32,000 bases of DNA, from the NCBI RefSeq assembly GCF_000016745.1, contig NC_009483.1, positions 3,480,001 through 3,512,000 on the forward strand, given 5' to 3'. The notes under the pieces are model-generated. The model made no database searches and was not told where the DNA came from. It was given only the letters and a program-made list of their open reading frames with translations. This DNA is from Geotalea uraniireducens Rf4 (GTDB lineage: Bacteria > Desulfobacterota > Desulfuromonadia > Geobacterales > Geobacteraceae). Below are positions 9,701-28,400 of the stretch, piece after piece (position 1 is the first letter of the stretch; each line of letters opens with the position of its first letter). The translations under genes were made by a program, and so were the position numbers.

Positions 9701-12700
9701 CGGCACCCCGGCAAAAAGGAAGCTCCCATCCGGACTGGTTGATGTTTCATTGGAATAGCTGCTGACGCCGTTTACCCATATTCTCACATTTGCATTGGAG
9801 ACCGGTGCGGTCCCTGAATAGTTCAATACCCTTCCCTTGACCACGCCGATGGGGGTGACAGCCACGTTGGCAATCACGGTTTCTCCATCTGAGGTCAATT
9901 TACCGCCGCCGACCCCTCGCCGTTCGCTGATCGGATCAAAACCCTCCAGGGTGAAGTCCCCGAGCGGCACAAAATCCAAACGGAACTGTCCGGCAGTGGC
10001 TGCCTCGGTGGAGGTAAACGCATAGGCGACCACTTGCTTTCCACTGTTGAGAAGTTTTATCTGCCCCCCCTGAATCGGCGTAACCCCGTCCGACTTGAAA
10101 AAGGTGCCGCTAAAGCTGCCGGAGGGGGCCAGCCTGACGTCGACATTGACTGCGGCATGGTCAAGCGGGATGTTTCCTTCGGCCCTCCCGCCGCGGTTTG
10201 AGCTTCCCATGGCAGAAATGGCATAGCGCCCTTCTGTGAGATTCTCGAAAGTTATCGTGCCATTCGGACCGGTGACCCCGTTGGCAAGGTCATTGGGAAA
10301 ATCACTCCCCTTTAAACTGATAGCGGTATTGGGCGCAATGGTATTGTCTGCATTGAGCGCACGCACAGTCATGGAACCACGCCCGAGTAAACGTATGGTG
10401 ACAGCAACGTCACGTCCCGCAGGGACGGAAACATACCCCTTCCCCTTGAGAGTGGTAACCAGATCTTCGACCAGGACACTGTAATTCCCCGCCGGAATAA
10501 CCGGCCTGAACTGGAATTTACCTTCCGCGTTCGTGGTGACGACCACATCAGCGCCGCCGAAAGTTACCGCAACCGTAATATCCGCCCCCGCCGGCGTGCC
10601 ATTGGGCAAGAGCACCTGGCCGGATATGGAGCCGAAGGTGTCTTTCAGTACCAGGTCCGCAGTTGCTGTCTCATTGTTGGCGGTTAAAGTGCCTCTTTTG
10701 GAAACAAGGGTGGGGCGGAGAACATTGAACGCACTGACCGTAAAATCACCCACATAGACATTGGTAAAGGTGTACCTGCCGCTCTGGGGATCGCTCTTCA
10801 CATTTGCCGAGCGATCATAGCGGAGCCAGCCGAGACCATCGGGCCGCATGGAGGAGAGCGCCACATCCGCCCCCACCGGGATCATGCCGGAGCCTTCATC
10901 GTAAATGGTGCCGGTAACGCTCCCCATGCCGACCGGATGGAGATCGACGGTTCTGGTCTGGGTGTCGTACCAGAGGGTGGTGCTGGCATTGGCAATCTCC
11001 CGGCCGTTGACCACTGTAAGATAATGGGTTTGCATCGGCAAAGCGGGAATGACGTATTTCCCTTCTCCGTCCGCCTTGTATGCAAAATATGTGTTGCTGA
11101 ACAAATTCACCAGCCGCACCGTGGCATGGGGAAAGACGCTGCCGTCCAGGCGATAGACGGTCCCCTGGATGGTCCCGGTAAAAAAGGATTTTGCCGGGAC
11201 AAACAGGTAGGCATTGGCAGTATCGCCGGCGGTCAGCAGGCTTACGCTGAGTGAAACAAGTGTCTGATTGAAGTCCCGCGGATTGGTTACCCTCAGGGAG
11301 ACCGTACCGAGCGGGACCCCGCTGATGGTGAAATTACCCTGCGTGTCGGTCTGCACGATCCTGGTTGTACCATCCACGTCTGCTATTACATGGAGACCGG
11401 CCACCGACTGGCCGTCCTCCCGTTCGACTTTCCCGGTAACCGTACCGGTCCCTTTCAGGATAATGTTGAAAACAGATGTGCCCCCTTCCAGCACCGTACC
11501 ACTGGCGGAGGTTCTTTCACCGCTGGCGTCGTCCTTCACGTCGATCCGCAGTTTGCCGGCAAAAATGCCGTTGAAGGCATAGCTGCCGTCTGAGCCGCTC
11601 CTCATCCAGTTGCTGTATCTGACTCCGCTACCTTCAAAAATCTGGGCGACAACTATGACACCCGCCCGGGGGGTACCGTCTGAACCGAGCACCTTGCCGG
11701 CAATATTGCCCCGTTTTGCATCCGAAAGCCGATAGATGGTGATGTCCTGTGTAATGCTGCCGCCGTTATCGGGGAGGGTCCCCATGATGCTCCCCTCGGC
11801 AAAGAGGGATTGGCTGACCGCCTTCAAAGTGAAGGCGCCGACCCGCACGTTGGCGAAAGAAAAAGCGCCGACAGCATCGGAAACGGCTAAATACGACCGG
11901 TCACCGCTCAAGGTAGTTATCAGCACCTGGGCACTTGCCACCGCCTGGCCTGCGGCATCGCGCACCACCCCGGAGACGCTGCCGCGCGCCTTCATGAAAA
12001 GATCAAGATTGAGCTTCTGTTCATTGAAAACTACGGAGGTGATGATATTGGCCCCATCAGACGTCTGCGGATCAACCGCCTCGACTTGGAACGGCCCGGA
12101 CGGATCGTCATTTTGCAAAACATAGTCGAACTGGTAACGACCGTTGGCATCGGCCGGCTTTTCACTGATGATGAAGTATTTCTGGAGGCGCTCATAGTCT
12201 TGTTCAACCCACTGCAGCTGCATAAGCCGGACAACAGCGCCGGGTATCGTCTCACCGCTCGCTTTCCGCACGGAGCCGTTTACCAGAGCGGCAGGTCCCT
12301 TGGCGGTGGTGCGGATCGGCATGGTGACCGGAGTAAGCTGGTTCTGTTTCAGGTCCGTGATGCCGGAAACAGTGATTTTCCGCTCGACAAACGGACCGAT
12401 GCCGTCCCGAAGGAGGATAAAGGCCATTCTGCCGCTAGGCTGGAGGTAAGAAATGCGTGCCGCGTTCTCATCGACGCTGTAATTGGCCAGATTTTGGGCG
12501 CTCACCTTGGTGACCTTTTCGGAAAAAAGGATCGCCACGGTGCGGCCATGCTTGTCGCCACCGGGGCCGAAACCGGGGACAATCTGGGTGACAGCCACCA
12601 CCTCGGGGGCCTGGTCAGGAATGACAAGGGTGGCAGCGGGGGCAATAATAGTCTCAGGGACGCCGTCGCCATTGGTATCGATTTGCAGGGAAAAATCGCT

Positions 12701-15025: not shown

Positions 15026-15066
15026 ATCGCCCGCCTATGGAAAAATTATTTCAAAGATTTAAATGG

Positions 15067-15095
15067 TTGCATTAGCCCGCAGAGCAGGATAATAT
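15067..15095 (+). promoter_or_regulatory. Putative sigma70-type promoter of vapBC
   Basis: TTGCAT (15067-15072), a 17-nt spacer, then TAATAT (15090-15095), lying 32 nt upstream of the vapB ATG. Two ATTCTTAC direct repeats (15094-15101 and 15105-15112) overlap or follow the -10 element. Confidence 0.35.
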
Positions 15096-15126
15096 TCTTA
15101 CATAATTCTTACCGGAGGTAATCCGT

Positions 15127-15378
15127 ATGAAAACCGTTAAACTATCGAGCAAAGGCCAATTCATCCTCCCCAAGGCCATCCGCGACCGGCACCACTGGGA
15201 GGTGGGCACGGAATTCGTCATCATCGACCGGGGAGCGGAACTGGTCATCAAGCCGACCAAGGTCTTCCCGCCGACCGAATTGGAGCCCCCCGACGCCCCA
15301 TCGGTCTACAGGGGCAAGCCGCTCTCACTGGAGGAGATGGAACGGGCCGTCATGGTCGAAGCGGGGAAGCACAAATGA
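15127..15378 (+). CDS. vapB: AbrB/SpoVT-fold (MazE/VapB-type) antitoxin
   Basis: 83 aa. The N-terminal KLSSKGQFILPKAIRDRHHWEVGTEFVI fits the looped-hinge-helix AbrB-type motif. GGAGG lies 8 nt upstream of the ATG. The stop overlaps the next start in ATGA (15375-15378). Confidence 0.85.
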   Translation: MKTVKLSSKGQFILPKAIRDRHHWEVGTEFVIIDRGAELVIKPTKVFPPTELEPPDAPSVYRGKPLSLEEMERAVMVEAGKHK

Positions 15379-15776
15379 TCGCCGTCGACACGAACATCCT
15401 GGTGCGCTACGCGGTGAAGGACGACCGTAACCAGGCGGCGCTGGCAACCGATTTCCTCGCCAGGAACCGCTGTTTCGTCCTCAAGACCGTCCTCATCGAG
15501 CTAGCCTGGGTCCTCTCTTCGTCTGCCGGCTACAATCTCCCCCGGGAAAACGTTCATGAACGATTGCTCCACATTCTCGGCCTGCCGGACATTGAAACGG
15601 AAGATGCCGCCCACGTTGCCCAGGCTCTCACTTGGTACGCGGAAGGGATGGACTTCGCCGATGCCCTCCATCTCGCCGGCAGTGTGGAACTGGCAGGTCT
15701 TGCCACCTTTGACCGTAAATTTGTCGCAACTGCGGAAAAGCTCGACGCCGTTCCCTCGGTACTCCTCGTGCGATAA
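15375..15776 (+). CDS. vapC: PIN-domain ribonuclease toxin
   Basis: 133 aa. It begins MIAVDTNILVRY with the conserved first Asp, and further acidic landmarks are present (ELAWVL, DFADALH, TFDRKF). A 4-nt overlap with the upstream antitoxin gene is typical of vapBC. Confidence 0.9.
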   Translation: MIAVDTNILVRYAVKDDRNQAALATDFLARNRCFVLKTVLIELAWVLSSSAGYNLPRENVHERLLHILGLPDIETEDAAHVAQALTWYAEGMDFADALHLAGSVELAGLATFDRKFVATAEKLDAVPSVLLVR

Positions 15777-15827
15777 GCTCTTCCTTTTTCAATCCTTTCG
15801 AACCGAATTATTTTCTCTCACACTCGG
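15709..15827 (+). repeat. Direct repeat copy A: last 68 nt of vapC plus 51 nt downstream
   Basis: Hand alignment with 24277-24395 gives 119 nt with 8 mismatches and no gaps. Confidence 0.9.
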
Positions 15828-15882
15828 ATTCATTGCTCATTTCTCTCATGTAAAGGACTGACCCTTCTGTCTTTCTCTTGGC

Positions 15883-16887
15883 TTACTCAAGCCCAACATA
15901 TTCTATCTTTTCCAGGTTCTTAAATAAGTTACGCTTTGGGTCATATTCTAGGTTTCTTGTATAGTCTGGATTAAAGTAATATTTGAAAATAATCACAGCT
16001 GTATTTGGGCCTTTGGGATAGAATTTGATGTCTCCATGAATTTTGCCATACATGGCTCGAACTAATTTGCCATCCTTTTCCTCAGATCTAATCCTGAAAA
16101 TATAGTTATTATCGTCTTTAAAACTCTGCTTAACTGGTTCTGTTAGCGATAACTTTCTTGTTGCACTTATTGATTTATTATATCCATCTTCCGGAGCGTA
16201 TCTGGGAAGTTTGAATTCACTTCCAAATCTCCGATTATCCTTTATTAATTGTATTCCATCATATCTATTCGAAAACGTAATGGTTAACTCACTATCATAT
16301 TCATACTCTATTACATAAGTAGGGTGAAACTTGAAATTTTTGTTATTCAGCTTCAATATTAAATCAGAATGAAGACCTTTCCCATATGGCGCTACCCAGT
16401 CATATTCCATCAAATCAAAGCCGACACCAGATGTTATATCAGGTAATTTAATTTCCTTAGACATTTTAGAATCTCTTGCATACATCGGCACAGGGTTTTC
16501 GATTTTTCTCAATACTACATTAACAACTTGATCCCATGGTTGCCACTTGAGGCCCTCTGCCTTTCTAAATTGATATTCACCGTAATACTCGTAATAGCCA
16601 TTTTTGTTAATATGATAACTGACCCCACTCACTGTCTTATGCTTAACCCAACATGCTCCTTTAGCATCAGTCAGTACTCTCACAATATCTTCATTTGTTC
16701 CTTTATCTCTCATTACTGGCTGATCGAATCCAACGGAAATATCGGCCTTTTCAACTGGCGCCCCTTGTTCGTCAACTATATGAAATGATAATTTAGCTTC
16801 CGGTATTATAAAGGCCCACGTATGACTATATGAAATTGCAACGATGCTGATTACAGCAAACAGTGATAGGATTATATTCCTCATCAT
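15883..16887 (-). CDS. Exported protein of unknown function; member of the 4-copy family that follows the hydrolase tips (putative orphan immunity paralogue)
   Basis: The ORF track starts at TTG 16902. I prefer ATG 16887 because GAGGA lies 5 nt upstream (ggcGAGGAatcaaATG). The N-terminus MMRNIILSLFAVISIVAISYSHTWA is signal-like. The 3' ~660 nt are highly similar to 16930-17592. Conserved landmarks shared with 19668-20633 and 24505-25461 are R-K-[IK]-E-x-P, Y-[AV]-P-[EP]-x-G-Y and NP-x-x-x-RN[LV][ED][YF]D. Confidence 0.8.
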   Translation of the reverse strand: MMRNIILSLFAVISIVAISYSHTWAFIIPEAKLSFHIVDEQGAPVEKADISVGFDQPVMRDKGTNEDIVRVLTDAKGACWVKHKTVSGVSYHINKNGYYEYYGEYQFRKAEGLKWQPWDQVVNVVLRKIENPVPMYARDSKMSKEIKLPDITSGVGFDLMEYDWVAPYGKGLHSDLILKLNNKNFKFHPTYVIEYEYDSELTITFSNRYDGIQLIKDNRRFGSEFKLPRYAPEDGYNKSISATRKLSLTEPVKQSFKDDNNYIFRIRSEEKDGKLVRAMYGKIHGDIKFYPKGPNTAVIIFKYYFNPDYTRNLEYDPKRNLFKNLEKIEYVGLE

Positions 16888-16929
16888 TTGATTCCTCGCC
16901 AAGTTGGGAGAAACTGCGGTGTTCGTGAC

Positions 16930-17940
16930 TTACTCAAGCCCAACATATTCTATCTTTTCCAGATTCTTAAATAAGTTACGCTTTGGGTCATATTCCAGAT
17001 TTCTTGTATAGTCTGGATTAAGGTAGTATCTGAATATGATTACTGCCGTATTAAGCCCTTTTGGATTGAACTCAATCTCGCCTTGTATTTTCCCATACAT
17101 AGCCCTGATTAGCTTTCCATCTTTTTCCTCTGATCTGATTCTGAAAATATAATTGTTATCGTCCTTAAAACTCTGTTTAACTGGTTCTTTTAGCGATACT
17201 TTCCTTGTTGCACTCATTGATTTATTATATCCATCTTCCGGGGCATATCTGGGAAGTTTGAACTTGCTTCCAAATCTCCGACTATCCTTTATCAACTGTA
17301 TCCCATCGTATCTATTCGAAAACGTAATGGTCAGCTCACTATCATATTCATAGTCGATTACATAATTTGGGAGAAACTTAAAGTATTTATTGTTCAACTT
17401 GAATATTAAATCAGAATGAATACCTTTACCATACGGCGCTACCCAATCATATTCCATCAAATCAAAGCCGACACCTGATTTCACATCTGCTAAATCAGGT
17501 ATTTGCATTTTTTTAGACATTTTAGAGTCTCTGGCATACATCGGCACTGGATTTTCTATTTTTCTCAATACAACATTAATTATCTGATCCCAAGGTTGCC
17601 AACGATTTCCTTCAATTACTTTAAACTTATATTCACCATAACTTTCATAATAACCCTCTTTATTAGCTTCATATCCAATGTCACGTATTGTTCGGCCTGA
17701 AGCTGTAAATAACCCCTTGGCATCAGTTTCACCTTTAATGGATTCACTATCAATTCCTTGTTCGCCTTTTCTCGGCACTTGAAAGCCCATTTCTATTTTT
17801 ACATTTTTTACTGGCTCGCCTGTTTCATCAACTACACGCAGAGTAATCTTGGCATCAGGAATAGTAAACGCCCATAAACAGCCGCTTATTAGTGCCATCA
17901 TACTTATTGCGAACGATAACGAGATTAATTTTGCTTTCAT
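16930..17940 (-). CDS. Probable lipoprotein, tandem paralogue of 15883-16887 (putative orphan immunity paralogue)
   Basis: ATG at 17940 with GGGAGGA 8 nt upstream (the ORF track's TTG at 17943 is one codon earlier). The N-terminus MKAKLISLSFAISMMALISG/C contains a lipobox-like LISGC. The C-terminal ~215 aa are nearly identical to the neighbouring gene. Confidence 0.8.
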   Translation of the reverse strand: MKAKLISLSFAISMMALISGCLWAFTIPDAKITLRVVDETGEPVKNVKIEMGFQVPRKGEQGIDSESIKGETDAKGLFTASGRTIRDIGYEANKEGYYESYGEYKFKVIEGNRWQPWDQIINVVLRKIENPVPMYARDSKMSKKMQIPDLADVKSGVGFDLMEYDWVAPYGKGIHSDLIFKLNNKYFKFLPNYVIDYEYDSELTITFSNRYDGIQLIKDSRRFGSKFKLPRYAPEDGYNKSMSATRKVSLKEPVKQSFKDDNNYIFRIRSEEKDGKLIRAMYGKIQGEIEFNPKGLNTAVIIFRYYLNPDYTRNLEYDPKRNLFKNLEKIEYVGLE

Positions 17941-18216
17941 CAATTAAGTCCTCCCGAACTTGTAAATTGCTCGAATATTTTATAGATGTATAAGAATGCT
18001 ATTTTTTTGATATCATTGTGAAACCAGTTCTTTGGTGATTTTCTCTCGCTTGGCCACTTGTCCCCTAGCGTTTTGAATCTTGATTGCATGTCAAAATTGT
18101 TTTCAATATCAATACTTATTAGTTTGTTCTTCCCTGCCGCCAATGTCCTGGCAGGGAAAGCTTCCGCAAGCAGACGTGATCTGTTGTTACCGGCAAACTG
18201 ACTACCACCAGCTTCC

Positions 18217-18258
18217 GAAACAACCTTAAGGGGTCAACAAACAACCTTAAGGGGTCAA
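18217..18258. repeat. Tandem 2 x 21-nt REP-like unit ([G/C]AAACAACCTTAAGGGGTCAA)
   Basis: 18217-18237 and 18238-18258 differ only at the first base. The second copy overlaps the left inverted repeat of the RayT-like unit. The 13-mer CTTAAGGGGTCAA recurs at 24470-24482. Confidence 0.75.
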
Positions 18259-19290
18259 AGCTCCAAATATCAAATTTTCAGGATCGCTTTCACTTTCTCC
18301 ACCTCTGCACACAACTTTTTATCTTGAACCAACTTCCTCGAAAGTAGACGGCGCGCTTCTGCTATTGCGGTTTCACCTACGCCGAACAGATTGCCGATTT
18401 CACGTAGTTTCTTTCCGCTGTACTTATGGCAGAGATACATTCCCACCTGCCGCGCCTGCTTTTCTTTTTCCCCCACTACTGCCGCTACTGCCTTCAATAT
18501 CTCTTCCGGCTCCGGGTTTGACTTAAATTGCCGGATTCCTGGGACAGCTCTGTCTACACCTTTCTCCGAGAGATGTTCTGATGTCACCATTTCTATAAAT
18601 TCCGCCGTGCCGAGTACTGCTGCGCCAAATGTGTTCTGGAAGGGGCTGTCGTATTCCTTCCCAAGCAAGTCTTCCACAAATGTTCGATACTTCTTCATTG
18701 CTTCTTTTGTCTTTTTGCCGAAATAGTCGAGGATTGTCTCCATCTTCAGCCACGTGGGCGCGGTTCCTTGACCGATGTAGTTGTTGTAGCTGGACCAGCG
18801 GTATTCCTCTGGACGCGTAACCATTCCCGCCCTTACCGGGTTTAAATGTATATATCGTGATAGTTCCATCGCATATTCGTCTAATTCAACCAGTATCGCC
18901 TTGTATCGCCCCTGAAAAAGATGCCCTGACCTTTTCCGCTTGATGTTGAAATATGTCGTGTATGCTCCGTTTATGTGCCGCATGATCTGTGACAGATTGC
19001 CTACCGGCGTTTCCAGGAGCAGATGATAATGATTGCTCATCAGGCAATAGGCATGAACTACTCCCCCGTATCGCTCTGTTGCCGATTCCAGATACTCCAG
19101 AAACTTTTGTCGGTCTCTTTGGCTTTTGAATACGTCCTTTTGCTCGTTACCTCTTGATGTGACATGGTAAAATGCTCCTGGATATTCGATTCGTAGCGGT
19201 CGTGCCATGGCGTTCTCCTTTGACTGATAAGTTATTCCTTTATCATCGCAAAGTTTACCATGCTTTTTGATTTTTGGAGACTTGACCCTT
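18249..19290 (-). mobile_element. RayT-like (REPtron-like) unit 1: Y1 transposase gene bounded by imperfect inverted repeats
   Basis: The left end is AAGGGGTCAAAGCTCCAA (18249-18266) and the right end is TTGGAGACTTGACCCTT (19274-19290). About 15 of 18 positions are complementary. I saw no flanking target-site duplication. Total length is 1042 bp. Confidence 0.6.
18270..19208 (-). CDS. IS200/RayT-like Y1 (HUH) tyrosine transposase fused to a DnaA-C-terminal-like HTH
   Basis: Start taken at ATG 19208 with AAGGAG upstream. It is homologous from residue 1 to 23223-24173 (MARPLRIEYPGAFYHVTSRGNEQKDVF). The HUH motif is NHYHLLLE and the Tyr motif is RYIHLNPVRAG. The C-terminal YLCHKYSGKKLREIGNLFGVGETAIAEARRLL is DnaA-domain-IV-like. 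Confidence 0.85.
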   Translation of the reverse strand: MARPLRIEYPGAFYHVTSRGNEQKDVFKSQRDRQKFLEYLESATERYGGVVHAYCLMSNHYHLLLETPVGNLSQIMRHINGAYTTYFNIKRKRSGHLFQGRYKAILVELDEYAMELSRYIHLNPVRAGMVTRPEEYRWSSYNNYIGQGTAPTWLKMETILDYFGKKTKEAMKKYRTFVEDLLGKEYDSPFQNTFGAAVLGTAEFIEMVTSEHLSEKGVDRAVPGIRQFKSNPEPEEILKAVAAVVGEKEKQARQVGMYLCHKYSGKKLREIGNLFGVGETAIAEARRLLSRKLVQDKKLCAEVEKVKAILKI

Positions 19291-19302
19291 TTATTTTCTT
19301 TT

Positions 19303-19620
19303 ATTCGGGTCGAAACCTTCAGGCAGCGGTATGGAGATCTTGACCTCCTTCCGGACATTGATACCGCCGGTGTCCACATTCACTGCTCCGAGATACTTGC
19401 CTCTTGCCGGCACCGGATGTGGAAGTTCCGCCTCTGTAACCGGCGTAATCCTGATAACGGTAGGCCCGACCAGCGCACCTTCAGGGATTTCGAGGAGCAC
19501 ACCCCCGTCACCTTCCACCTTGCCCCCCTTGGCGGTGACAAGGTAGCTGTCGTCCGAACCCTTGAAGGTGGGGTACGAGATGGTGGTCTGGTTGCCGGAG
19601 TAGTCCAGCAGGACTACTGC
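19303..19620 (-). pseudogene. Relic internal fragment of a third giant-protein gene (ZU5-like segment)
   Basis: Encodes ...LLDYSGNQTTISYPTFKGSDDSYLVTAKGGKVEGDGGVLLEIPEGALVGPTVIRITPVTEAELPHPVPARGKYLGAVNVDTGGINVRKEVKISIPLPEGFDP. This parallels IMDNSGNQTLVSYLTFKSDDGNYLVTAKGGKVEGEGGSILDIPEGAL...LSMPLPDGFDP of the gene at about 30170-30490. Homology stops at both ends and no start or scaffold is present. Confidence 0.8.
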
Positions 19621-19667
19621 CAAAAAAATGAGTCAGTGAACAAATAAACAACGTCGCACCCCCTTCT

Positions 19668-20633
19668 CTATTGTGGCTTCGTCCCCATTCTTTCCGCTGA
19701 TGCATTTTTATTTGCTAGGTACGCCCTGTATTTATCACCATCGAAATCAAGATTCCTTTCACCCAAGGGGTTTGTCCATACTTCTGCTTTAAAAAATACC
19801 TCGCCATTTTGGTTGACAAATTTGATATCTAGATTTGAGTATATCCCACCACCCCTGCTCTTTATGTAGAGATAGGTTTTAAACATCTGACCATTGGTCA
19901 CCTTAACTTTATAAATATTTTTGTAACCGGTCTCTGGTGGCACATAGAGCATCTGGTCAAGAGCAATAATGCCGCTATCGGCATCAGGTGTTTCCAAGAT
20001 AAAGTTATAGGCATCTTCTGCGGAAATGTACTCTACTCGGGCCTTAAGGTCAGCATGTGCATTATCGCTGTGATACCTCTTAAGATAGTATGGTGCTCCA
20101 TCAACCATATCGACAAGATCAACCTCGTAGTATTTTACATCTTTTTTAAAAACTACAGATATGTCACCAGGGATGACAACCGTTGGGGGTTCTTTCTTGC
20201 GCATGGTGAATACTACAGGATTGTTTCTGTCAATAACTGTGCTGCCATCATTTTCATATTCATCATGACCTTTAGCTCGGTTAATCCTCAAATAGTCATA
20301 ACCAGAGGCAGTTATTTTATTAACCAACAGACCGCTTCCATTGATCGCGGAAACTTCAAAAATGCCTTGATTATCAGTTGACAACACAATTTCCTTTACA
20401 CCGACTGCTTGGATAATTTGGATAGAAACCTGTGCGCTAATTACGGGCAGATTGTTATTATCCAATACCTTTCCGTAGTATAAAATGGGTTTGTCAAGTG
20501 ATTTTAATACATTTGATATTGTAGTTTGTTTATCTATTTTACTTAGATCATCTGCAAAATTACACTTTGTAAAAACAGCCAGTCCTGCAACAAACACAAT
20601 AGTAACAATTAATATTTTATTTTTCACAATCAC
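19668..20633 (-). CDS. Signal/anchor-bearing protein immediately downstream of the orphan hydrolase tip (putative cognate immunity protein)
   Basis: 321 aa. The GTG at 20633 overlaps the AAGGGAG RBS, so GTG at 20627 (5-nt spacing) is an alternative start. The N-terminus is hydrophobic (KILIVTIVFVAGLAVFTKC), followed by a CarboxypepD_reg-like segment (ILYYGKVLDNNNLPVISAQVSIQI...TDNQGIFEVSAINGSGLLV). It is homologous along its whole length to 24505-25461. Confidence 0.8.
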   Translation of the reverse strand: MIVKNKILIVTIVFVAGLAVFTKCNFADDLSKIDKQTTISNVLKSLDKPILYYGKVLDNNNLPVISAQVSIQIIQAVGVKEIVLSTDNQGIFEVSAINGSGLLVNKITASGYDYLRINRAKGHDEYENDGSTVIDRNNPVVFTMRKKEPPTVVIPGDISVVFKKDVKYYEVDLVDMVDGAPYYLKRYHSDNAHADLKARVEYISAEDAYNFILETPDADSGIIALDQMLYVPPETGYKNIYKVKVTNGQMFKTYLYIKSRGGGIYSNLDIKFVNQNGEVFFKAEVWTNPLGERNLDFDGDKYRAYLANKNASAERMGTKPQ

Positions 20634-20640
20634 TCCCTTA

Positions 20641-23196
20641 TTAGTATGATGATGTCAATCTAAAATCTGACATGATTGCTTTCCAATAGCCTTTTTCTTG
20701 TATTATAGTTGATCTGAACTGTCTGCTATGAGAGTAATGCTTCGTATCGTAATCAAATAATACTTTAAGGTCTTTATTATTATCATTATAAAAATTATTG
20801 ATGGCAGAAGAAACTGCACCTATGGCTTTAGCTCGTGATTGTATAATTCTGCTGAATACTTCATATCTATCATCCGGCAGATATAATGGGAGAAGGCCAT
20901 TTAAGTGTATTGAACCAAGTGGAACGTAACTGTATGGAAAGTCAGGACGTGTCAAACTATTGAGTTCCCAAGCTGCATACCCCTCATCTCCTCTGCTCAA
21001 GGCAAAATCTAATCTATTAAAATAGTTAATGTGTTTTGCTTTTTGTGTACTTGAAGATAGGTATGGCTTATCTGAGGAGGTTTCGTTACCAGACATATAA
21101 TATCCAAAGATGTTAGCTGTAATAACAGTACCTGGAATCTTGGCTGCAAGGCTTTTCTCTGTTATCGTATTGTCATAATAATGCGCCGACAAGGCCGCCT
21201 GTGTAGCAATATAGGTATGGACTATTCCTGGCCCCGGCAATTTATTGATGGTTTCTCCTGATACGATACCACCCATACTATGACCGAGTAGCCGTATCTT
21301 GCCCTGATATTTCGTCATATCTCCGCTTAAGAGCAAATTTTTAAATGCTTCTGAGGAATTCCATGCCCTTATCTCACTTTCGTCGAAAGTAAGTGCACCT
21401 TCCAATGTCGGCCAACTAAACAAACCAACTTTTCCGGTATACCCTGACCACCAGAGCCGCTTGAACATAGTCTCGGCCCAACGCTCCTTCTCCACTTCTC
21501 CGTTCGTCATGTTCCAGCCATGAACATAGAAAATGTAGTCATTGTTTTTGGGCTGATAATCTCCCTTTCTGGTTGTGTAGGATGTCAACACTCTCTTGGC
21601 GAGATCATCATAAGCAACCTGATATTTGTCATAAAACCAAGTAATCGGTTTCAGGTCCAATTTTGCTGAATTTTCCTCAATGTCGACCCCATCCGATTTG
21701 AGACTAATAGTCAGATCACCTGTACCTGATGATTTACCTTCGAAAATGAAATGCGACGCCCCTGTACCCATCAGTACGTTAGCAGGTAAATCAGAGACAT
21801 TAACTGAATCAATCGTGACAATTCGTTTGTTATACAACTGTAGCAGGGCTGTCTTGTATTCACTTAGATATTTTGTACCATCTGTCACCGCCTCAAAAAG
21901 ATTTAGTGATGGATTTGTGCCATTAACGTTTTTGAATTGCAGTTGATATGAGAAAACCGGCGGCGGCGTATCGTGTGGCGCAGTAAGAAACTTGATGACA
22001 TTACGTGCATGTTCGTCTATCTGTATGTGAACTTGTGCAAAATCTTCCAAGTCGCGCAACGTATTAATTTGGTCAACTTCAGTGTCATTTGCGTCTGATG
22101 CACTTGAATATATATCATCATCAAAAAGACCAACTTCGGCATTTCTCACGTCTGGCCCGGTATCATGATCATCATTCACCCAGAAAGTATATTTCTTGTC
22201 TTCAGGATCATCGAATCTGATCTTCCCATCCCTATTTCCATCAAAGGCAATCCTGATCAGCTTCTCAAGCGGAATATTTTTGCGCCTCATCAACCTGCCG
22301 TCTTTGCGGTTGCTGAATTCAAAAATCGCCTTGGTCCCGATACTGCCAAAAACTGGCGCGATTGCCATCCCATCCACGGTGGTCAGTGTCAAATCGGCAG
22401 CCGGGAAGTTGGTGGCTATAAAGCGTTTGTTTGTCGGAGACGTTATTGTTTTTTTCAAGTCGGCATAGCAGTGCTCGTCACTTCCTTTGCGGAAAGACAG
22501 CAGATACTGCGTCGGGTGGTCTATACCGGGAAGAGGGTTGACAACAGCACCCTTGCGCGTTTTGATTACCATGCTACCTACCAGGTCGTCATCATTACAG
22601 TTGATATCCGGATCCTCGTACTTTACCTCGACGTAGTAGCGACGGTCATCCTCTCCGCCCTTACTGTATCCTATCTCGGGAACCTGAATATTGCTCTCAT
22701 TGTATACTCTTATGTCGTTGGTGTTAATACCCATTGTGCGCATACCTTTGGTCTGGTCCGCCATGTACAGCCAGCCGTCTTTTTCCGCCATGGCCGGGAT
22801 GGTGCCTATGGGAATCATCGCCGGGGATCCTTCCGGTGTTGTAGCGCCGGATGAGTTGGGCAGTTGGGTGATGGTGTTGATCAGCCGGGGATTTTTTGGG
22901 TCTTTCACATCCACTACCTGAATGGCGCTCAAGGTACTGACGATTGCCAGCCCCGTCTCTTTGTTCAAGGTTATATCGTAGGGATAGGAGACAACCTCTT
23001 TATCCAGGGCATCTTTGACCGTTGCCAGCGGTTGGGGGTTGTAGGGGTCGGTAAGGTCAACGGTCTTGAGTCGGCCGCCACCGCCGGTGAGGGCCAGGTC
23101 CATGCTCTGCGGGTTGCCGTCGGCATCGGCATAGCTGTAGTCGGACACACCCGCCACACGCAAGGCGTTCAGCTTTTTGGGCTCGATCACTCCCAT
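20641..23196 (-). CDS. 5'-truncated orphan copy of the 3' third of the giant gene at 25465-32000, ending in a diverged DUF900-like alpha/beta-hydrolase; possibly silent
   Basis: Homology to the full-length gene begins exactly at 23199 (QMGVIEPKKLNALRVAG...). The first in-frame ATG is at 23196, with no visible RBS. The 21 extra N-terminal residues in the ORF track (TTG 23259) are read from inside the transposase unit and overlap the transposase stop. Confidence 0.7.
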   Translation of the reverse strand: MGVIEPKKLNALRVAGVSDYSYADADGNPQSMDLALTGGGGRLKTVDLTDPYNPQPLATVKDALDKEVVSYPYDITLNKETGLAIVSTLSAIQVVDVKDPKNPRLINTITQLPNSSGATTPEGSPAMIPIGTIPAMAEKDGWLYMADQTKGMRTMGINTNDIRVYNESNIQVPEIGYSKGGEDDRRYYVEVKYEDPDINCNDDDLVGSMVIKTRKGAVVNPLPGIDHPTQYLLSFRKGSDEHCYADLKKTITSPTNKRFIATNFPAADLTLTTVDGMAIAPVFGSIGTKAIFEFSNRKDGRLMRRKNIPLEKLIRIAFDGNRDGKIRFDDPEDKKYTFWVNDDHDTGPDVRNAEVGLFDDDIYSSASDANDTEVDQINTLRDLEDFAQVHIQIDEHARNVIKFLTAPHDTPPPVFSYQLQFKNVNGTNPSLNLFEAVTDGTKYLSEYKTALLQLYNKRIVTIDSVNVSDLPANVLMGTGASHFIFEGKSSGTGDLTISLKSDGVDIEENSAKLDLKPITWFYDKYQVAYDDLAKRVLTSYTTRKGDYQPKNNDYIFYVHGWNMTNGEVEKERWAETMFKRLWWSGYTGKVGLFSWPTLEGALTFDESEIRAWNSSEAFKNLLLSGDMTKYQGKIRLLGHSMGGIVSGETINKLPGPGIVHTYIATQAALSAHYYDNTITEKSLAAKIPGTVITANIFGYYMSGNETSSDKPYLSSSTQKAKHINYFNRLDFALSRGDEGYAAWELNSLTRPDFPYSYVPLGSIHLNGLLPLYLPDDRYEVFSRIIQSRAKAIGAVSSAINNFYNDNNKDLKVLFDYDTKHYSHSRQFRSTIIQEKGYWKAIMSDFRLTSSY
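20644..21545 (-). other. Alpha/beta-hydrolase (DUF900-like) tip, orphan allele
   Basis: Landmarks are YVHGWNM, FSWPTLEG, FDESEIRAWNSSEA, GHSMGG (21268-21285), INYFNRLDFAL and KHYSHSRQFRS. Confidence 0.6.
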
Positions 23197-23199
23197 CTG
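22390..23199 (-). repeat. 810-bp block identical to 27361-28170 (recombination handle, orphan copy)
   Basis: Line-by-line comparison at a constant offset of 4971 nt found no mismatch. Identity ends abruptly at 23199/23200. On the other side it decays to roughly 80-85% over 22170-22389 and drops lower beyond that. Confidence 0.9.
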
Positions 23200-23210
23200 A
23201 GAAAAACTAG

Positions 23211-24252
23211 AGGGGTCAGGTCTCAACTTCTGACATACCCTAAATTTGCCTCTACCCAATCTACCATCTTCTTCACTTGTTGATCTTTCTCGGCCTTTAA
23301 TGCCAGCCTCCGGCTTGCCTGCGATACCGCCGCATCGCTTATTCCAAAACGTTCACCTATTTCCTTAAGCTTTGCTCCGCTATACTTCTGACAGCAATAA
23401 ATGCTCATATTTCTTATCAACTCGTCTCTTTCGCCGAGCACCGCATTGATTTCCTTTATGATTTCATCCATCGAAGGCCGGGTTGCCAGTTCCTTCACAG
23501 CCGGAACGCTCCGCTCTGCCCGTCTCTCTCCCAGATGCCTTTCCGATATTTCTCTTACAAATTCTTCACTTCCTAATACTGTCGAGGCTACCGTTGCTTT
23601 CAATGGGCTGTCGTATTCACTATCGAGAAGGTCTTCGACAAATTTCCGATACTTGTTTTTCACATCCGGTGCTTTCGTGCCAAAATAGCCGAGTATGAAT
23701 TCCGTCTTCAGCCAATCGGTCGCCTTGTTGTCTTGACCTATGTAACTTCGATAGCTGGACCACTGATATCCCTCCGGCTTAGCAACTATTCCCGCCCGTA
23801 CCGGATTCAGATGAATGTACCGTGAAAGCTCTGTCGCATATTCATCTGCTTCGACGAGTATCGCCTTGTATCGCCCCTGGAACAGATGACCGGCTCTCTT
23901 CCGCTTGACGTTGAAGTACGTTGTATATGCACCGTTTACATGCCGCATGATCTGCGAAAGGTTCCCGGATGGTGTTTCCAGCAGCAGGTGGTAATGGTTG
24001 CCCATCAGGCAGTAGGCATGGATTAACGCCCCGTACCGCTTTGTTGCCGATTCCAGATATTCCAGAAACTTTTCCCGATCCTTTTGACTCTTGAATACGT
24101 CCTTCTGTTCGTTTCCTCTCGACGTGACATGGTAAAATGCTCCAGGATATTCGATTCTTAAAGGCCGTGCCATCGCTTCCTCCTTTGATTGTTTTGGACT
24201 TTCTCAAACATATCAAAGAAGTTCTACCTGTCAAGAATTGAGACCTGACCCC
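23211..24252 (-). mobile_element. RayT-like (REPtron-like) unit 2: Y1 transposase gene bounded by perfect 16-bp inverted repeats
   Basis: AGGGGTCAGGTCTCAA (23211-23226) is the exact reverse complement of TTGAGACCTGACCCCT (24237-24252). Length is 1042 bp. I saw no target-site duplication. The left repeat overlaps the transposase stop codon. Confidence 0.7.
23223..24173 (-). CDS. IS200/RayT-like Y1 (HUH) tyrosine transposase fused to a DnaA-C-terminal-like HTH
   Basis: 316 aa, with ATG 24173 preceded by AAGGAGG. The HUH motif is NHYHLLLE and the Tyr motif is RYIHLNPVRAG. The C-terminal YCCQKYSGAKLKEIGERFGISDAAVSQASRRL is HTH-like. By eye it is roughly three-quarters identical to 18270-19208. 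Confidence 0.88.
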   Translation of the reverse strand: MARPLRIEYPGAFYHVTSRGNEQKDVFKSQKDREKFLEYLESATKRYGALIHAYCLMGNHYHLLLETPSGNLSQIMRHVNGAYTTYFNVKRKRAGHLFQGRYKAILVEADEYATELSRYIHLNPVRAGIVAKPEGYQWSSYRSYIGQDNKATDWLKTEFILGYFGTKAPDVKNKYRKFVEDLLDSEYDSPLKATVASTVLGSEEFVREISERHLGERRAERSVPAVKELATRPSMDEIIKEINAVLGERDELIRNMSIYCCQKYSGAKLKEIGERFGISDAAVSQASRRLALKAEKDQQVKKMVDWVEANLGYVRS

Positions 24253-24276
24253 TTTGGTTGCCCTCCTTTGGTTGCC

Positions 24277-24344
24277 CTTGACCGTAAATTTGCCGCAACC
24301 GCGGAAAAGCTCGACGCCGTTCCCTCGGTAATCCTCGTGCAATA
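24277..24344 (+). pseudogene. vapC 3'-terminal remnant (last ~22 codons only)
   Basis: Encodes ..DRKFAATAEKLDAVPSVILVQ*, compared with ..DRKFVATAEKLDAVPSVLLVR* for the intact vapC. No upstream PIN coding sequence is present. Confidence 0.85.
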
Positions 24345-24395
24345 AGCTCTTCCTTTTTCAATCCTTTCGAACTAAATCATTTTCTCTCGCACTCG
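24277..24395 (+). repeat. Direct repeat copy B of the vapC 3' end plus downstream sequence
   Basis: 111 of 119 nt are identical to 15709-15827, in the same orientation. The two copies bracket 8449 bp (15828-24276). Confidence 0.9.
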
Positions 24396-24456
24396 GCTGA
24401 GCGGATCGAGCTGGAAGTTAAACCGTTCAGAAATGCACTTAGAATGTGAATTCACC

Positions 24457-24494
24457 GCTTAAGAGAAAGCTTAAGGGGTCAAAGAAAGCTTAAG
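24457..24494. repeat. REP-like cluster: three GCTTAAG cores, AGAAAGCTTAAG x2, containing CTTAAGGGGTCAA
   Basis: GCTTAAG occurs at 24457, 24469 and 24488. AGAAAGCTTAAG occurs at 24464-24475 and 24483-24494 (period 19). The 13-mer CTTAAGGGGTCAA (24470-24482) is identical to the two copies at 18225-18237 and 18246-18258. Confidence 0.6.
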
Positions 24495-24504
24495 TGTACC
24501 TCTA

Positions 24505-25461
24505 CTATTTCTTTATCGTTGAAAATGTTTCAGTTTCCGCGTTCTTTTTATCCAAATACTGGCCATATAATTCTCCATCATAATCAACATTCCTTTCGCC
24601 GTTCGGATTCGTCCAACCTTTGACGACCATGACAGCTTTTTCTTTCGTTGCCTTAAAAGTAGTATCCAGCCTTGAATAAATCTGACCAGCACGACCTTTA
24701 ATGTATAAATACTTCTTCACCTTGGTATTTATTGGGACTGTGATTTGGAAAGTTTTCTGATATCCGCTTGCAGGTGGCACGTACAACATCTCGTCAAGAG
24801 CAATAATGCCGCTGTTTGCATCCTGTTCTTCAACAGTGATGGTATACGAAGAATCCGCTTCGGAATAAACTGCCTTGGCCCTCAGATCGATATGTAAGTT
24901 TTTGCTTTCGTAATTTTCTAAATACCCTTTCTCTCTTCCATCAAGTTTTACAAGATCAATTTCGTAATAAGGAATATTTTTTGTGAATACAATTGAAAAT
25001 TCTTCATTTAATACCAATGTTGGCGGTTCCTTTTTGCGAACGGTGTAAGTTACGGGGCTATCTTTCTTTGCCACGAATGAGCCGTCATTTTCAAAAGATG
25101 TTTCAGCTGTATCTACTGATTTATCATATTCATAACCTCGATTTTTAATATCAACTATCAAAATAGAGTTACCTTTAATGTTGCTGACTTCGAATCTTCC
25201 ACCGCTATCTGTCTTAATACCAAATTCCGCTATGCCATTAGAACTTCTCACATGGACAATCACATCAATGCCTTCAACAGGCGTGTTGAGATGATCAACC
25301 ACCCTACCATAGAAAAGAATGGGCTTGTCCATGGAGAGCAGTTCAAGATCTGCTCTATTGGCTTTATCTGCTTCGGTTAAATTCTGCGCGTGATTGCACT
25401 TTGAAGTAACAACCAAGACGCCTATTGTTAACAACACTACGAGAGGAATCAGTTTATTCAT
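24505..25461 (-). CDS. Signal/anchor-bearing protein immediately downstream of the full-length hydrolase tip (putative cognate immunity protein)
   Basis: 318 aa. The ATG at 25461 lies 3 nt after the upstream stop, and its AAGGAG RBS sits inside the last codons of the upstream gene. The N-terminus is MNKLIPLVVLLTIGVLVVTSKC, followed by a CarboxypepD_reg-like segment (ILFYGRVVDHLNTPVEGIDVIVHV...TDSGGRFEVSNIKGNSILIV). Confidence 0.85.
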   Translation of the reverse strand: MNKLIPLVVLLTIGVLVVTSKCNHAQNLTEADKANRADLELLSMDKPILFYGRVVDHLNTPVEGIDVIVHVRSSNGIAEFGIKTDSGGRFEVSNIKGNSILIVDIKNRGYEYDKSVDTAETSFENDGSFVAKKDSPVTYTVRKKEPPTLVLNEEFSIVFTKNIPYYEIDLVKLDGREKGYLENYESKNLHIDLRAKAVYSEADSSYTITVEEQDANSGIIALDEMLYVPPASGYQKTFQITVPINTKVKKYLYIKGRAGQIYSRLDTTFKATKEKAVMVVKGWTNPNGERNVDYDGELYGQYLDKKNAETETFSTIKK

Positions 25462-25464
25462 TTG

Positions 25465-28400
25465 CTACTCCTTTTCTATTGAGCTTTTTAGTTCAAAATC
25501 ACTAAAGATTGCTTTCCAGTATCCCTGCTCGTCAACAATATTTGAACGAAACTCCTTACTGTGAGAATAATGTTTGTCGTCATAACCAAACTTTTTAAGG
25601 TTTCGGCTCTTTTCAAATCCCTTAAGTGGCGTTTTGCTCGTCGCCCCCAATGCCTTGACCCGAGACTGAATTATTCTGCTGAATATCTCATAACGGTCAG
25701 CGGGAAATTTAAGCAGACTTGGCATGCTTAATCCGTCGTTCGAAATCCCCAATCTCACATAATAGTTGCTTCCGCCATCGATTGAATTCAGCAACGAGCT
25801 TATTATGCCTGGAATTGTCGGAAGCGGATCAAGCAACGTAAAACAAGCTACTGCTAGTCCGTTGCAATACAGGTAACCAGGATCGGGTCTGAACTTGGTA
25901 TTGAATTCCCACGCCATGAAACCACGTTCTCCGGCTGTCAAAGCATAGTCCACTTCGTTAAAATAATTGATGAACTTTGCCTTGCCGGTTGAATCTGCCA
26001 AATAGGTGGCATCTTGTGAGCCACTATTGCCTGAGTAGTAGTACCCAAATACATTCGGAGTTACCGGCAACAGAGGCAGACGCCGGCTACTCTCCGTCAC
26101 ACTATTGTCGTAGAAATGTGACGAAAGCGCTGCCTGTGTGGGAATGTACGTTTTAACGATGCCGGGACCCGACAGCTTCTGAATGGCCTCACCTGAAACT
26201 ATTCCTCCCATGCTATGCCCAAGCAACCTGATGTTTCCAGCATAATCCCTGAGCTTTATTTCAAGTACATCTTTTAGTGCTTCAGAAGAATTCCATGCCC
26301 TCAATTCGCTTCTGTCAAAGGTAGTACCTCTTGGAATGTCATAAGGTTTTTCAAGGGTAGGCCAACTGAACGATCCTACACGCCCTGTATACCCCTGCCA
26401 CCAAAGCCGTTTATAGATTGTTTCGGCCCACCGATCTTTCTCGATTTCACCTTGCATGTTCCAGCCGTGAACGAACAGGAGGTAATCTTTGTCTTTCGCT
26501 GGATATTCGCTTTTTTTGATCTCGCTGACCTGCGATCCGACTGTTTTGCTTCCCTCGTCATATGTGACCCTGAATTTGTCATAGAATGTCTGAATTGGCT
26601 TTAACTCCAGAAGCGCTGAATTTTCTTCTAAAGTATCGCCATCCGCCTTGAGGATAAAGGTGAGTTCTCCTTTGCCAAAGTTTCGCCCTTCAAAAATATA
26701 CGGCGACGTTTTATCCGTCGATATATAGGAGGGGGCGAGTTCTGATTCAGTAGATGAGATAGTAAGAAGCTTTGGTTTATCCAACTGCTTTCGTGCAGAA
26801 TTTTCATTCCACAAATATTTTTCAGTTTCACCAACAGCCTGGAAAATATTTATCTCAGGGGATGTACCGTTGGTATTATTGAACTTGAGATAATAACCGA
26901 AGCTCTTAGGTTGTGTCGTCTGATTTGATAATATCTCCATTACCTTCCTTGCGTGAGGATGAAGTTGCATTTGGACACGGGCAAAATCTTCAAGATCTCT
27001 CAGCGTTTTTATCTTGTCACCGTTTTCACGAACACAATCCTTAACTGTTCCGCTAATATTATCATCTTCTACTGGATAAGTAATTTTTGAGCCTTGGTTG
27101 ATGTCAGTATATTCGGTTTCATAACCATTGACATCATTATCATCATTCACCCAGAAGGTGTATTTCCTGTCCTCGGGGTTTTTAAAATCAATCACCCCAT
27201 CCCTATTTCCATCAAAGGCAATCCTGATCAGCTTCTCAAGCGGTATACTCTTGCGCCTCATGAGTCTCCCCTCTTTGCGACTGCTGAACTCGAATATCGC
27301 CTTTGTACCGATACTGCCGAAGACTGGCGCTATCGTCATCCCGTCTGGTGTGGTCAATTTCAAATCGGCAGCCGGGAAGTTGGTGGCTATAAAGCGTTTG
27401 TTTGTCGGAGACGTTATTGTTTTTTTCAAGTCGGCATAGCAGTGCTCGTCACTTCCTTTGCGGAAAGACAGCAGATACTGCGTCGGGTGGTCTATACCGG
27501 GAAGAGGGTTGACAACAGCACCCTTGCGCGTTTTGATTACCATGCTACCTACCAGGTCGTCATCATTACAGTTGATATCCGGATCCTCGTACTTTACCTC
27601 GACGTAGTAGCGACGGTCATCCTCTCCGCCCTTACTGTATCCTATCTCGGGAACCTGAATATTGCTCTCATTGTATACTCTTATGTCGTTGGTGTTAATA
27701 CCCATTGTGCGCATACCTTTGGTCTGGTCCGCCATGTACAGCCAGCCGTCTTTTTCCGCCATGGCCGGGATGGTGCCTATGGGAATCATCGCCGGGGATC
27801 CTTCCGGTGTTGTAGCGCCGGATGAGTTGGGCAGTTGGGTGATGGTGTTGATCAGCCGGGGATTTTTTGGGTCTTTCACATCCACTACCTGAATGGCGCT
27901 CAAGGTACTGACGATTGCCAGCCCCGTCTCTTTGTTCAAGGTTATATCGTAGGGATAGGAGACAACCTCTTTATCCAGGGCATCTTTGACCGTTGCCAGC
28001 GGTTGGGGGTTGTAGGGGTCGGTAAGGTCAACGGTCTTGAGTCGGCCGCCACCGCCGGTGAGGGCCAGGTCCATGCTCTGCGGGTTGCCGTCGGCATCGG
28101 CATAGCTGTAGTCGGACACACCCGCCACACGCAAGGCGTTCAGCTTTTTGGGCTCGATCACTCCCATCTGGACCGGCGTGGGGTTGTTGATATCCAGGGT
28201 TATCAGATAACCAGCGGTGGTGGTGAGGAGAGCCTTACCCGTTCCGTAGACCGCAATGTCGTTGGGCGAACCGTATCCCTGGCCGATACTGTCGAAGACA
28301 CCCACAATACTTGGGTTGTCTGCCGAGAAGCCGTCATAGCTGTCCTTGGCCTTACTGATGCTGACCACCTGCAGCGCCGCCGCAGCCGTGGCAATGTAGG

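Follow-up and report, generated by a model that had tools for sequence, protein, structure and literature searches.

A stranded vapC 3' end beside a tip/partner gene pair of Geotalea uraniireducens Rf4 and a possible course of growth of its surface-protein locus

In Geotalea uraniireducens Rf4 the 3' end of the toxin gene vapC is found twice in one locus, once as part of an intact vapBC module and once as an isolated remnant some 8.4 kb away, close to a large surface-protein gene with a variable hydrolase tip (tip1) and its small partner gene (partner1), which raises the question of how a piece of vapC came to be stranded at this site. We analysed the locus in a window of 32,000 nt (NC_009483.1, positions 3,480,001 to 3,512,000, RefSeq assembly GCF_000016745.1), in whose numbering all coordinates are given. 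The duplicated vapC end is real and far beyond chance. The answer that we favour, and to which we give an even chance of being right, is that the remnant (copy B, or vapC') is a molecular fossil of a vapC gene formerly situated immediately beyond tip1/partner1, in a locus whose growth came about through C-terminal displacement and the exchange of cassettes.

Self-BLASTN aligned positions 15706-15827 (copy A, plus strand) with 24275-24396 (copy B, plus strand) over 122 nt of the same strand, with 92.6% identity, 9 mismatches, no gaps and an E value of 7.6e-46, and a separate repeat search recovered this pair, spaced 8,569 bp apart, with an interval of 8,447 bp between the copies. The initial annotation of this DNA had recorded a repeat of 15709-15827 with 8 mismatches; this 119-nt pairing is exact in register, with mismatches at 15724, 15731, 15762, 15772, 15804, 15805, 15809 and 15820 of copy A, but its second member is at 24278-24396, one base from the 24277-24395 first given, and three further bases (two matches and one mismatch) stretch it to 122 nt. 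The longest identical run between the copies is 31 nt, and eight of the nine differences are transitions by a hand count on the aligned copies. Copy A comprises the last 68-71 nt of vapC, with the stop codon at 15776, and 51 nt of 3' flank (the last 68 nt and the same 51 nt in the 119-nt pairing, as first described). Copy B comprises codons 112-133 and the stop codon followed by the same 51-nt flank, and its right end coincides to the base with that of the copy A homology. It had been described as lacking upstream PIN sequence, and indeed the end of a RayT unit lies leftward of it; tblastn recovered vapC' as VapC aa 109-133 and detected no vapB or vapC remnant in 15000-25500 beyond the intact genes and copy B.

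Unitigs from independent read sets of the same strain (SRR9436595/6) match the window at 100% identity, and their breaks fall exactly on the 31-mer common to copies A and B and at a second repeat, the handle repeat described below (L001 ends at 15802, L003 spans 23170-24371 and L002 spans 24343-27225); since they reproduce the repeat structure, it is no assembly artefact and both junctions are real. The placement first reported was also confirmed: copy B lies just past the hydrolase/partner pair, 108 nt beyond partner1, and copy A lies at the far end of the orphan tract, 55 nt before a 339-aa gene. The 108-nt spacer (24397-24504) between copy B and the partner1 stop codon holds CTTAAGGGGTCAA, a motif present twice after the second RayT unit, and in a sensitive search the two spacers share only a 13-15-nt motif resembling repetitive extragenic palindromes (REP-like motif). 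A terminator scan found none within the 51-nt flank and Rfam gave no match in 15000-25600; the repeat probably has no present-day function and could at most serve, poorly, in a deletion of the 8,569-bp tract.

The intact module consists of vapB (15127-15378, plus strand), an antitoxin of the AbrB/MazE fold (Pfam MazE_antitoxin, 30.1 bits; NCBIfam AbrB-family domain), and vapC (15375-15776, plus strand), a PIN toxin of 133 aa (Pfam PIN, E 3e-12); the genes overlap by 4 nt and both Pfam matches are above cut-off, as in a VapBC type II module. VapC has 2,530 homologues, the named ones belonging to Geobacteraceae/Desulfuromonadales. Copy B encodes DRKFAATAEKLDAVPSVILVQ followed by a stop codon, and matches the C-termini of the orthologues at 20 of 21 positions, compared with 18 of 21 for copy A; two orthologues depart from copy B at the last residue only. 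Three of the four coding differences of copy B are non-synonymous and give Ala, Ile and Gln in place of the Val, Leu and Arg of copy A. The Ala state is found in almost all of the 120 closest VapC orthologues, and Ile is common among them. Judged by these alignments, copy B is a genuine vapC 3' end, the end of a normal allele, and at least one change in copy A (Val) is derived; because Ala and Ile are common orthologue states, copy B would not simply be a decayed copy of A.

The two copies are 93% identical, and either is about 85-88% identical over its last 69 nt, by hand count on the alignment, to one relative (contig L012). L012 matches at 89.5% nt over vapBC, with the same giant gene still adjoining the module, and diverges right after the vapC stop codon. 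Orthologues of vapBC at 82-87% identity occupy unrelated contexts, and in four of these other contexts the homology to the window starts ~33 nt before vapB and stops at the vapC stop codon, which led us to reject the 51-nt flank as part of a mobile vapBC module. The flank is thus locus-specific, and copies A and B therefore stem from the same type of locus and not from two landings of a mobile vapBC. One further vapC orthologue (L013:348-748, ERZ27254853; 82% nt) has an in-frame TGA at codon 119, is called as 118 aa, and appears from its sequence to have been inactivated independently.

The interval between the copies was examined against the gene on its far side. The main big gene (25465-31911, minus strand; 2,148 aa; Pfam Big_5, LVIVD and DUF900) includes a conserved handle (27133-28170) that switches abruptly to a variable C-terminal tip, as in polymorphic toxins; tip1 is a DUF900 hydrolase. 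This active tip is paired with partner1 (24505-25461, minus strand; 318 aa), which is 100% identical to a Geotalea uraniireducens hypothetical protein and belongs to a rare family with 9 homologues among 5.8 billion proteins. Within the interval, an orphan gene (20641-23199, minus strand) consists of a 5'-truncated handle (22162-23199) fused to tip2, another DUF900-type hydrolase with GHSMGG and a weak DUF900 match, and is accompanied by partner2 (19668-20633, minus strand; 321 aa), which shares 42.5% aa identity with partner1 over its full length. A downstream, 5'-truncated copy with a different tip and its own small partner gene has the form of a displaced module. Its homology to the main gene begins abruptly at 23199, beside RayT1, and the two handles (22162-23199 and 27133-28170) show 0 mismatches over 22389-23199 (27360-28170, 811 nt) and ~80% identity over the next 227 nt, while tip1 and tip2 share 49% aa identity. 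By its alignment, the 100%-to-80% step looks like a recent conversion or crossover tract in the handle. The 93% and 100% identities of the vapC and handle pairs had been taken to date different events, a use that we abandon: copy B has ancestral or common residues absent from A, so the 7% may be pre-existing allelic divergence, and the step in the handle has the look of a conversion or crossover tract.

Further along the interval, a fragment of ~300 nt from another big-type gene (19306-19623, minus strand), equal to main-gene aa 475-580 and cut off by RayT2, is the remnant of a third orphan; 19307-19607 matches 30173-30473 at 72% by BLASTN and at 63% aa by tblastn. It is followed by two tandem tip-less genes (15883-17943, minus strand) of 339 aa (15883-16902) and 337 aa (16930-17943), with 70% aa identity to each other. 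Profile-profile alignment with hhalign related these proteins to the partner family (probability 96.8%, E 3e-10, 267 columns), and they are read as orphan partners. Because the 337- and 339-aa genes are distant partner-family homologues, the whole interval between the vapC copies is orphan-array material, in agreement with the initial description of the 8.4-kb tract. The partners, as well as the 337- and 339-aa proteins, have N-terminal hydrophobic signal-like segments in their translations; with the modest DUF900 match (24.2 bits against a cut-off of 20.5) and the GHSMGG motif, these segments suggest that the tips are toxins and the partners immunity proteins, which are predicted roles.

This gene content bears on whether copy B is instead the remnant of a paralogous vapBC. 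Such a paralogue would have arisen either by duplication of vapBC and its flank in situ or by tandem duplication of a stretch running from the handle as far as vapC codon 111, followed by 7% divergence; RayT1 would later have destroyed the extra copy, the tips and partners would later have been exchanged, and the repeat would be silent on the former end of the locus. We consider this distinctly unlikely. It agrees with the facts that A and B are mutually closest and have flank DNA in common, that three of four coding differences are non-synonymous, as in a decaying fragment, and eight of nine differences are transitions, and a tandem duplication from the handle to codon 111 would make the joint between vapC' and the handle in one step. 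However, divergence is much greater between the tips (49% aa) and between the partners (42% aa) than in vapC' (93% nt) or the handle (100%), so that extra replacements are needed, RayT1 must land exactly on the duplication joint, and no trace of vapB or of 5' vapC is left. The ancestral Ala of copy B against the derived state of copy A is compatible with a paralogue, but lends no support to simple decay of A.

At its left end, copy B meets the RayT1 unit (23205-24276, minus strand), a discrete IS-like (insertion sequence-like) element of ~1.05 kb with a gene at 23223-24173, 31-nt inverted repeats at 23205-23235 and 24229-24259, and a 14-nt terminal tandem duplication at 24251-24278 (Tandem Repeats Finder); the motif expectation for this unit is 0.02. 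The end of the element (...GGTTGCC, 24276) meets vapC' exactly between codons 111 and 112, and the unit lies precisely where vapC' is joined to the truncated handle. RayT2 (18215-19306, minus strand; gene ~18270-19211) is a Y1 (HUH) transposase unit with a 21-nt tandem duplication at 18218-18258 and the REP-like motif A[AG]GGGTCA on both sides in inverted orientation (+18229, +18250; -19290). Both RayT proteins match Pfam Y1_Tnp and Bac_DnaA_C, with a C-terminal DnaA-like helix-turn-helix (HTH), and NCBIfam NF047646 REP_Tyr_transpos places them in the RAYT family (85.1 bits for RayT1 and 84.1 bits for RayT2, cut-off 80); they share 77% nt and 63% aa identity. The motif A[AG]GGGTCA occurs in seven intergenic copies across a 10.5-kb tract, at 15866(-), 18229(+), 18250(+), 19290(-), 23211(+), 24253(-) and 24474(+); each RayT gene has inverted copies on its two sides, and vapC copy A and copy B each have one further copy just beyond them. 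Extended forms are GGGTCA[AG]GTCTC and CTTAAGGGGTCAA, the motif also being written A[AG]GGGTCA(GGTCTCAA). Folding of the arms flanking the RayT genes gave no significant hairpins, none better than shuffles, and no REP-like motif or hairpin was found at the handle breakpoint of the main gene.

The closest relative of RayT1 was found in a contig from another organism (L035:1-7206, JGI 3300086361 contig Ga0683570_0013293), where 3035-4083 corresponds to window 24262-23213 at 91% nt over 1,052 nt (90% aa), with unrelated flanks. The homology ends inside the 31-nt inverted repeats and the L035 unit has no vapC flank, which places vapC' outside the RayT1 element, abutting its end. By these alignments RayT1 is a discrete unit with defined ends in different genomic contexts, as for IS200/IS605-type elements. 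RayT+HTH homologues number roughly 8,000, and many RayT homologues occur on contigs of 1.0-1.4 kb; the contig-length distribution as evidence of multiple copies was dropped as too weak, and tblastn of RayT1 against plasmids gave relatives below 47% identity only and was uninformative. As separate observations, the tract's best match to a sigma-70-like promoter (TTGACA-16-TATGTT, with a TG upstream; 24207-24234, minus strand) lies in the right inverted repeat of RayT1 and is directed into RayT1, and perfect short tandem duplications (14-21 nt, at least two copies) are present at or near RayT ends and after neighbouring genes, both in the window (18218-18258, 24251-24278) and in L035 (4080-4115, 5150-5230, 6480-6560).

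HUH elements of other families (IS91/ISCR) mobilise adjacent DNA, and vapC' might therefore be a flank that the RayT1 unit carried or captured after an earlier insertion in vapC, by one-ended or surrogate-end mobilisation or as filler DNA at a repair joint, in which case its site beside partner1 would be accidental. The direct abutment of vapC' on the RayT1 end at the terminal 14-nt duplication fits such a capture, as does CTTAAGGGGTCAA at 24470-24482 on the far side of vapC', which leaves the remnant bracketed by inverted copies of the motif. Yet the 91%-identical L035 unit carries no such flank, the inverted-repeat arms have no significant hairpins, so that recognition sites of the IS200/IS605 or REP type would be putative; the coincidence to the base of the right ends of copies B and A is also more in keeping with a boundary common to the locus than with capture of an arbitrary piece. 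Capture by RayT1 seems to us hardly likely at all.

In light of these data, we propose the following course of events for the fossil reading that we favour. A vapC copy would formerly have lain beyond tip1/partner1, in the same type of junction as copy A today, and would have been cut between codons 111 and 112 by the ~1.05-kb RayT (Y1/HUH) unit. A 4,971-bp block of handle, tip1, partner1, vapC' and RayT1 would then have been placed in front of an older array, made up of handle-tip2-partner2, the third-orphan fragment, RayT2 and the two tip-less partner genes and ending at the intact vapBC. Homologous recombination would have taken place in the conserved handle, and a shared RayT copy may have served as well; the earlier tip would be left silent downstream and vapC' would be carried as a passenger. 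A variant with simple precursors only would use a double crossover with one anchor in the big gene and the other in a RayT1 copy carried by both partners. Partner1 most likely once abutted an intact vapC. The initial annotation had likewise suggested that a cassette entered the locus, perhaps by integration of a circle in the handle or by unequal exchange with a related locus, and displaced an older tip/partner pair: the orphan array, the RayT unit at the joint and the same-locus vapC ends support the entry, and the 811-bp identical handle is a good substrate for a circle and matches the model of Jackson et al. 2009 (PMC2935791), but the order of events, their direction and the route of recombination we infer.

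The direction has to be weighed with care, since the repeat pairs are interleaved (handle, vapC', handle, vapC) and either pair could mark the last integration. Read in the opposite direction, an 8.45-kb tract from RayT1 through the 339-aa gene, with its own vapC 3' end, would have inserted into the vapC of an ancestral big-tip1-partner1-vapC-vapB locus, by Campbell-type recombination or homology-facilitated illegitimate recombination (HFIR) anchored in vapBC and the giant gene; copy B would then be the stranded 3' end of the resident, and copy A would have arrived with the tract. Direct repeats around an insert are a classical signature of integration, and the topology is fully consistent with this course. 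Integrative elements duplicate the 3' end of a gene as attL and attR, and the locus resembles such a pair in having an intact gene end at one border of the tract and, at the other, a diverged, stranded copy of that 3' end in direct orientation; it differs in that no tyrosine or serine recombinase was found in the annotated genes of the tract and one of the 'att' ends is the end of an IS-like unit. No integrase domain was detected by Pfam and NCBIfam in the eight annotated genes (339, 337, RayT2, partner2, orphan tip2, RayT1, vapB and vapC), the shorter overlapping open reading frames (ORFs) being unscanned. The derived Val of copy A, absent from nearly all orthologues, also speaks for the arrival of A with the tract, the giant-gene/vapBC block that is syntenic in L012 could have been a long anchor, and HFIR has been proposed for effector-immunity arrays (PMC5361080).

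We nevertheless regard this opposite direction as unlikely. The handle is favoured as the crossover site because its 811 bp of perfect identity far exceed the 122 bp at 93%, with a longest run of 31 nt, of the vapC pair, which is a very poor substrate by comparison, and because published arrays grow at the expressed gene and not distally. In addition, the tract carries only Y1 transposases and no integrase, and the left end of the insert must coincide with the end of the RayT unit.

Several observations weigh against the fossil reading itself. A donor circle must already contain the joint of vapC', RayT1 and handle, for which the circle model gives no origin, and the perfect identity of the handle requires a near-identical donor or later gene conversion. 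From the contexts of its orthologues, vapBC is mobile among Geobacteraceae. No genome or metagenome contig was found with the simple state big-tip1-partner1-vapC, and the only relative with a tip1/partner1-like cassette (L014, 84% nt) has a homology that stops at the partner stop codon, an unconserved 108-nt spacer and, after the partner, an unrelated ORF and then another big-gene fragment, with no vapC. The predicted toxin and immunity roles are not helped by the structure prediction of the tip, which was unusable (pLDDT 36.8), and a sequence search gave no PDB relative. Of what the initial annotation had expected, vapBC directly abutting a single tip/partner pair was seen in no related genome. 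Nor is vapC a general conserved flank marking the ancestral end of the locus: orthologues at 84-87% aa lie in unrelated contexts, and the giant-gene/vapBC adjacency is shared with one relative only (L012). As to whether the repeat is a common dispersed element, a metagenome scan with a 22-mer from the 51-nt flank returned 12 contigs with chance matches of 22-26 nt and no extended homology, thus no sign of a dispersed element but no close relative either; further copies of the 122-bp segment may yet lie elsewhere in the Rf4 genome. A scan of the genome collection with the handle protein gave four weak (38-40%) LVIVD-type matches in unrelated metagenome-assembled genomes, and did not recover the organism's own genome.

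The big-gene fragment downstream of the partner in L014 (2231-2361, on a contig of just 2.4 kb) aligns from 30507, compared with 30473 for the fragment in the window, and suggests, from these two alignments, that orphans have another preferred starting point, ~2.3 kb upstream of the handle. Partner homologues were also seen alone: in the JGI contigs L015-L022 a 39%-identical homologue of 348 aa, with no tip gene, has an SNF2 helicase/BREX-like region on one side and a convergent Abhydrolase_1 gene on the other, so that partner-family genes can occur outside toxin loci.

The L035 contig parallels the window in its gene order (toxin, immunity, RayT, RayT, partner-family gene, convergent PIN). 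Its RayT1-like unit lies 60 nt after a 138-aa lipoprotein gene, which in turn comes after an RHS-repeat/Tle1-like phospholipase gene; beyond the unit there are another RayT, a partner-family gene of 317 aa (43% aa to the 337- and 339-aa proteins) and a convergent PIN gene unrelated to VapC. This single observation suggests, as far as gene order can tell, that these RayT units and partner-family genes move together with toxin cassettes of the lipase type. It also invites a bolder reading, in which RayT-type Y1 units would not be bystanders but would belong to the machinery that handles cassettes in polymorphic toxin loci of the lipase type, marking the ends of cassettes and giving portable homology, or cutting handle-to-RayT circles via surrogate ends, with vapC' as a scar of mobilisation. 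The RayT1 relative that follows an Rhs-Tle1 toxin/immunity pair in the same gene order is the ground for this proposal, which we hold to be very unlikely.

The conserved left neighbour of vapBC is a divergent giant surface-protein gene taken from the ORF list (740-15025, minus strand; 4,761 aa), whose orthologue (66-75% nt) adjoins vapBC in L012. It shares with the 2,148-aa gene only Big_5-type domains, and a duplication of a whole vapBC and big-gene unit was rejected on this similarity being restricted to Big_5 and on the lack of any vapB or 5' vapC trace. The 3' part of the giant gene (852-4345) holds three to four tandem modules of ~0.95-1.1 kb, two of which are 95-98% identical over about 550 nt; at this identity the modules would indicate recent internal duplication or conversion. 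The ORF of the 2,148-aa gene starts at a GTG just after in-frame stops (31801-32000), with no signal peptide that is obvious; the real 5' end of the gene, or its route of secretion, may be found beyond the window.

We compared the locus with systems in which such arrays are established. In Rhs loci, C-terminal displacement and orphan tips have been described, with a circular intermediate that contains a core fragment, a tip and any genes in between (Jackson et al. 2009, PMC2935791), and orphan cdiA-CT/cdiI modules occur in arrays with transposable-element genes (Poole et al. 2011, PMC3150448). The present locus is like these Rhs and contact-dependent growth inhibition (CDI) loci in its intact gene with a conserved region, variable tip and small partner gene, in the downstream 5'-truncated fragments with a (near-)identical conserved part, a dissimilar tip and an own partner, in its low-GC cassettes and in the transposable-element genes among the orphans, and the circular intermediate of Jackson et al. 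would correspond to the 4,971-bp block of handle, tip1, partner1, vapC' and RayT1. It differs in its carrier, which is neither Rhs nor CdiA (Pfam gave Big_5, LVIVD, CopC-like and DUF900 only and NCBIfam only a sub-threshold choice-of-anchor B match, DPxGL and VENN peptide motifs not having been searched), in that the array keeps a piece of the housekeeping-type flank gene vapC as a positional marker, and in the RayT-type units at both cassette joints.

In type VI secretion system (T6SS) effector-immunity arrays, a new module is placed beside a conserved upstream gene and older immunity genes are shifted downstream (Kirchberger 2017, PMC5361080). The module by a conserved upstream gene, the distal tip-less orphan immunity genes (here 337/339) and the proposal of one homologous anchor with one illegitimate end are points of likeness; in contrast, the window shows no T6SS genes, the old tip has been kept and the non-homologous joint is occupied by a transposase unit. 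With RAYT/REPtron and IS200/IS605 systems (Bertels et al. 2017, PMC5581495) the RayT units share a Y1 HUH transposase above the NCBIfam cut-off and an inverted short G-rich motif that flanks the gene and recurs in nearby extragenic DNA. Unlike RAYTs, they carry an extra C-terminal DnaA-like HTH and are present as two diverged paralogues 5 kb apart (two adjacent ones in L035), RAYTs being typically single-copy, and unlike REPs the motif arms are not significant palindromes.

Taken together, C-terminal displacement and the accumulation of orphans, known from Rhs, CDI and T6SS loci, would here extend to a new type of carrier, a surface protein of Geobacter distinct from both Rhs and CdiA. The usual reading of orphan arrays draws on repeated core fragments alone, and the stranded vapC' would add an independent positional marker, according to which the tip/partner pair in current use was once at the end of the locus next to vapBC; RayT-like units are indicated as recurring joints in such arrays. 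The mechanism of displacement (circle, HFIR or IS-anchored exchange) and the order of cassettes have been in question since the 2009 model, and the vapC' marker would allow a direct test once related Geotalea genomes are available.

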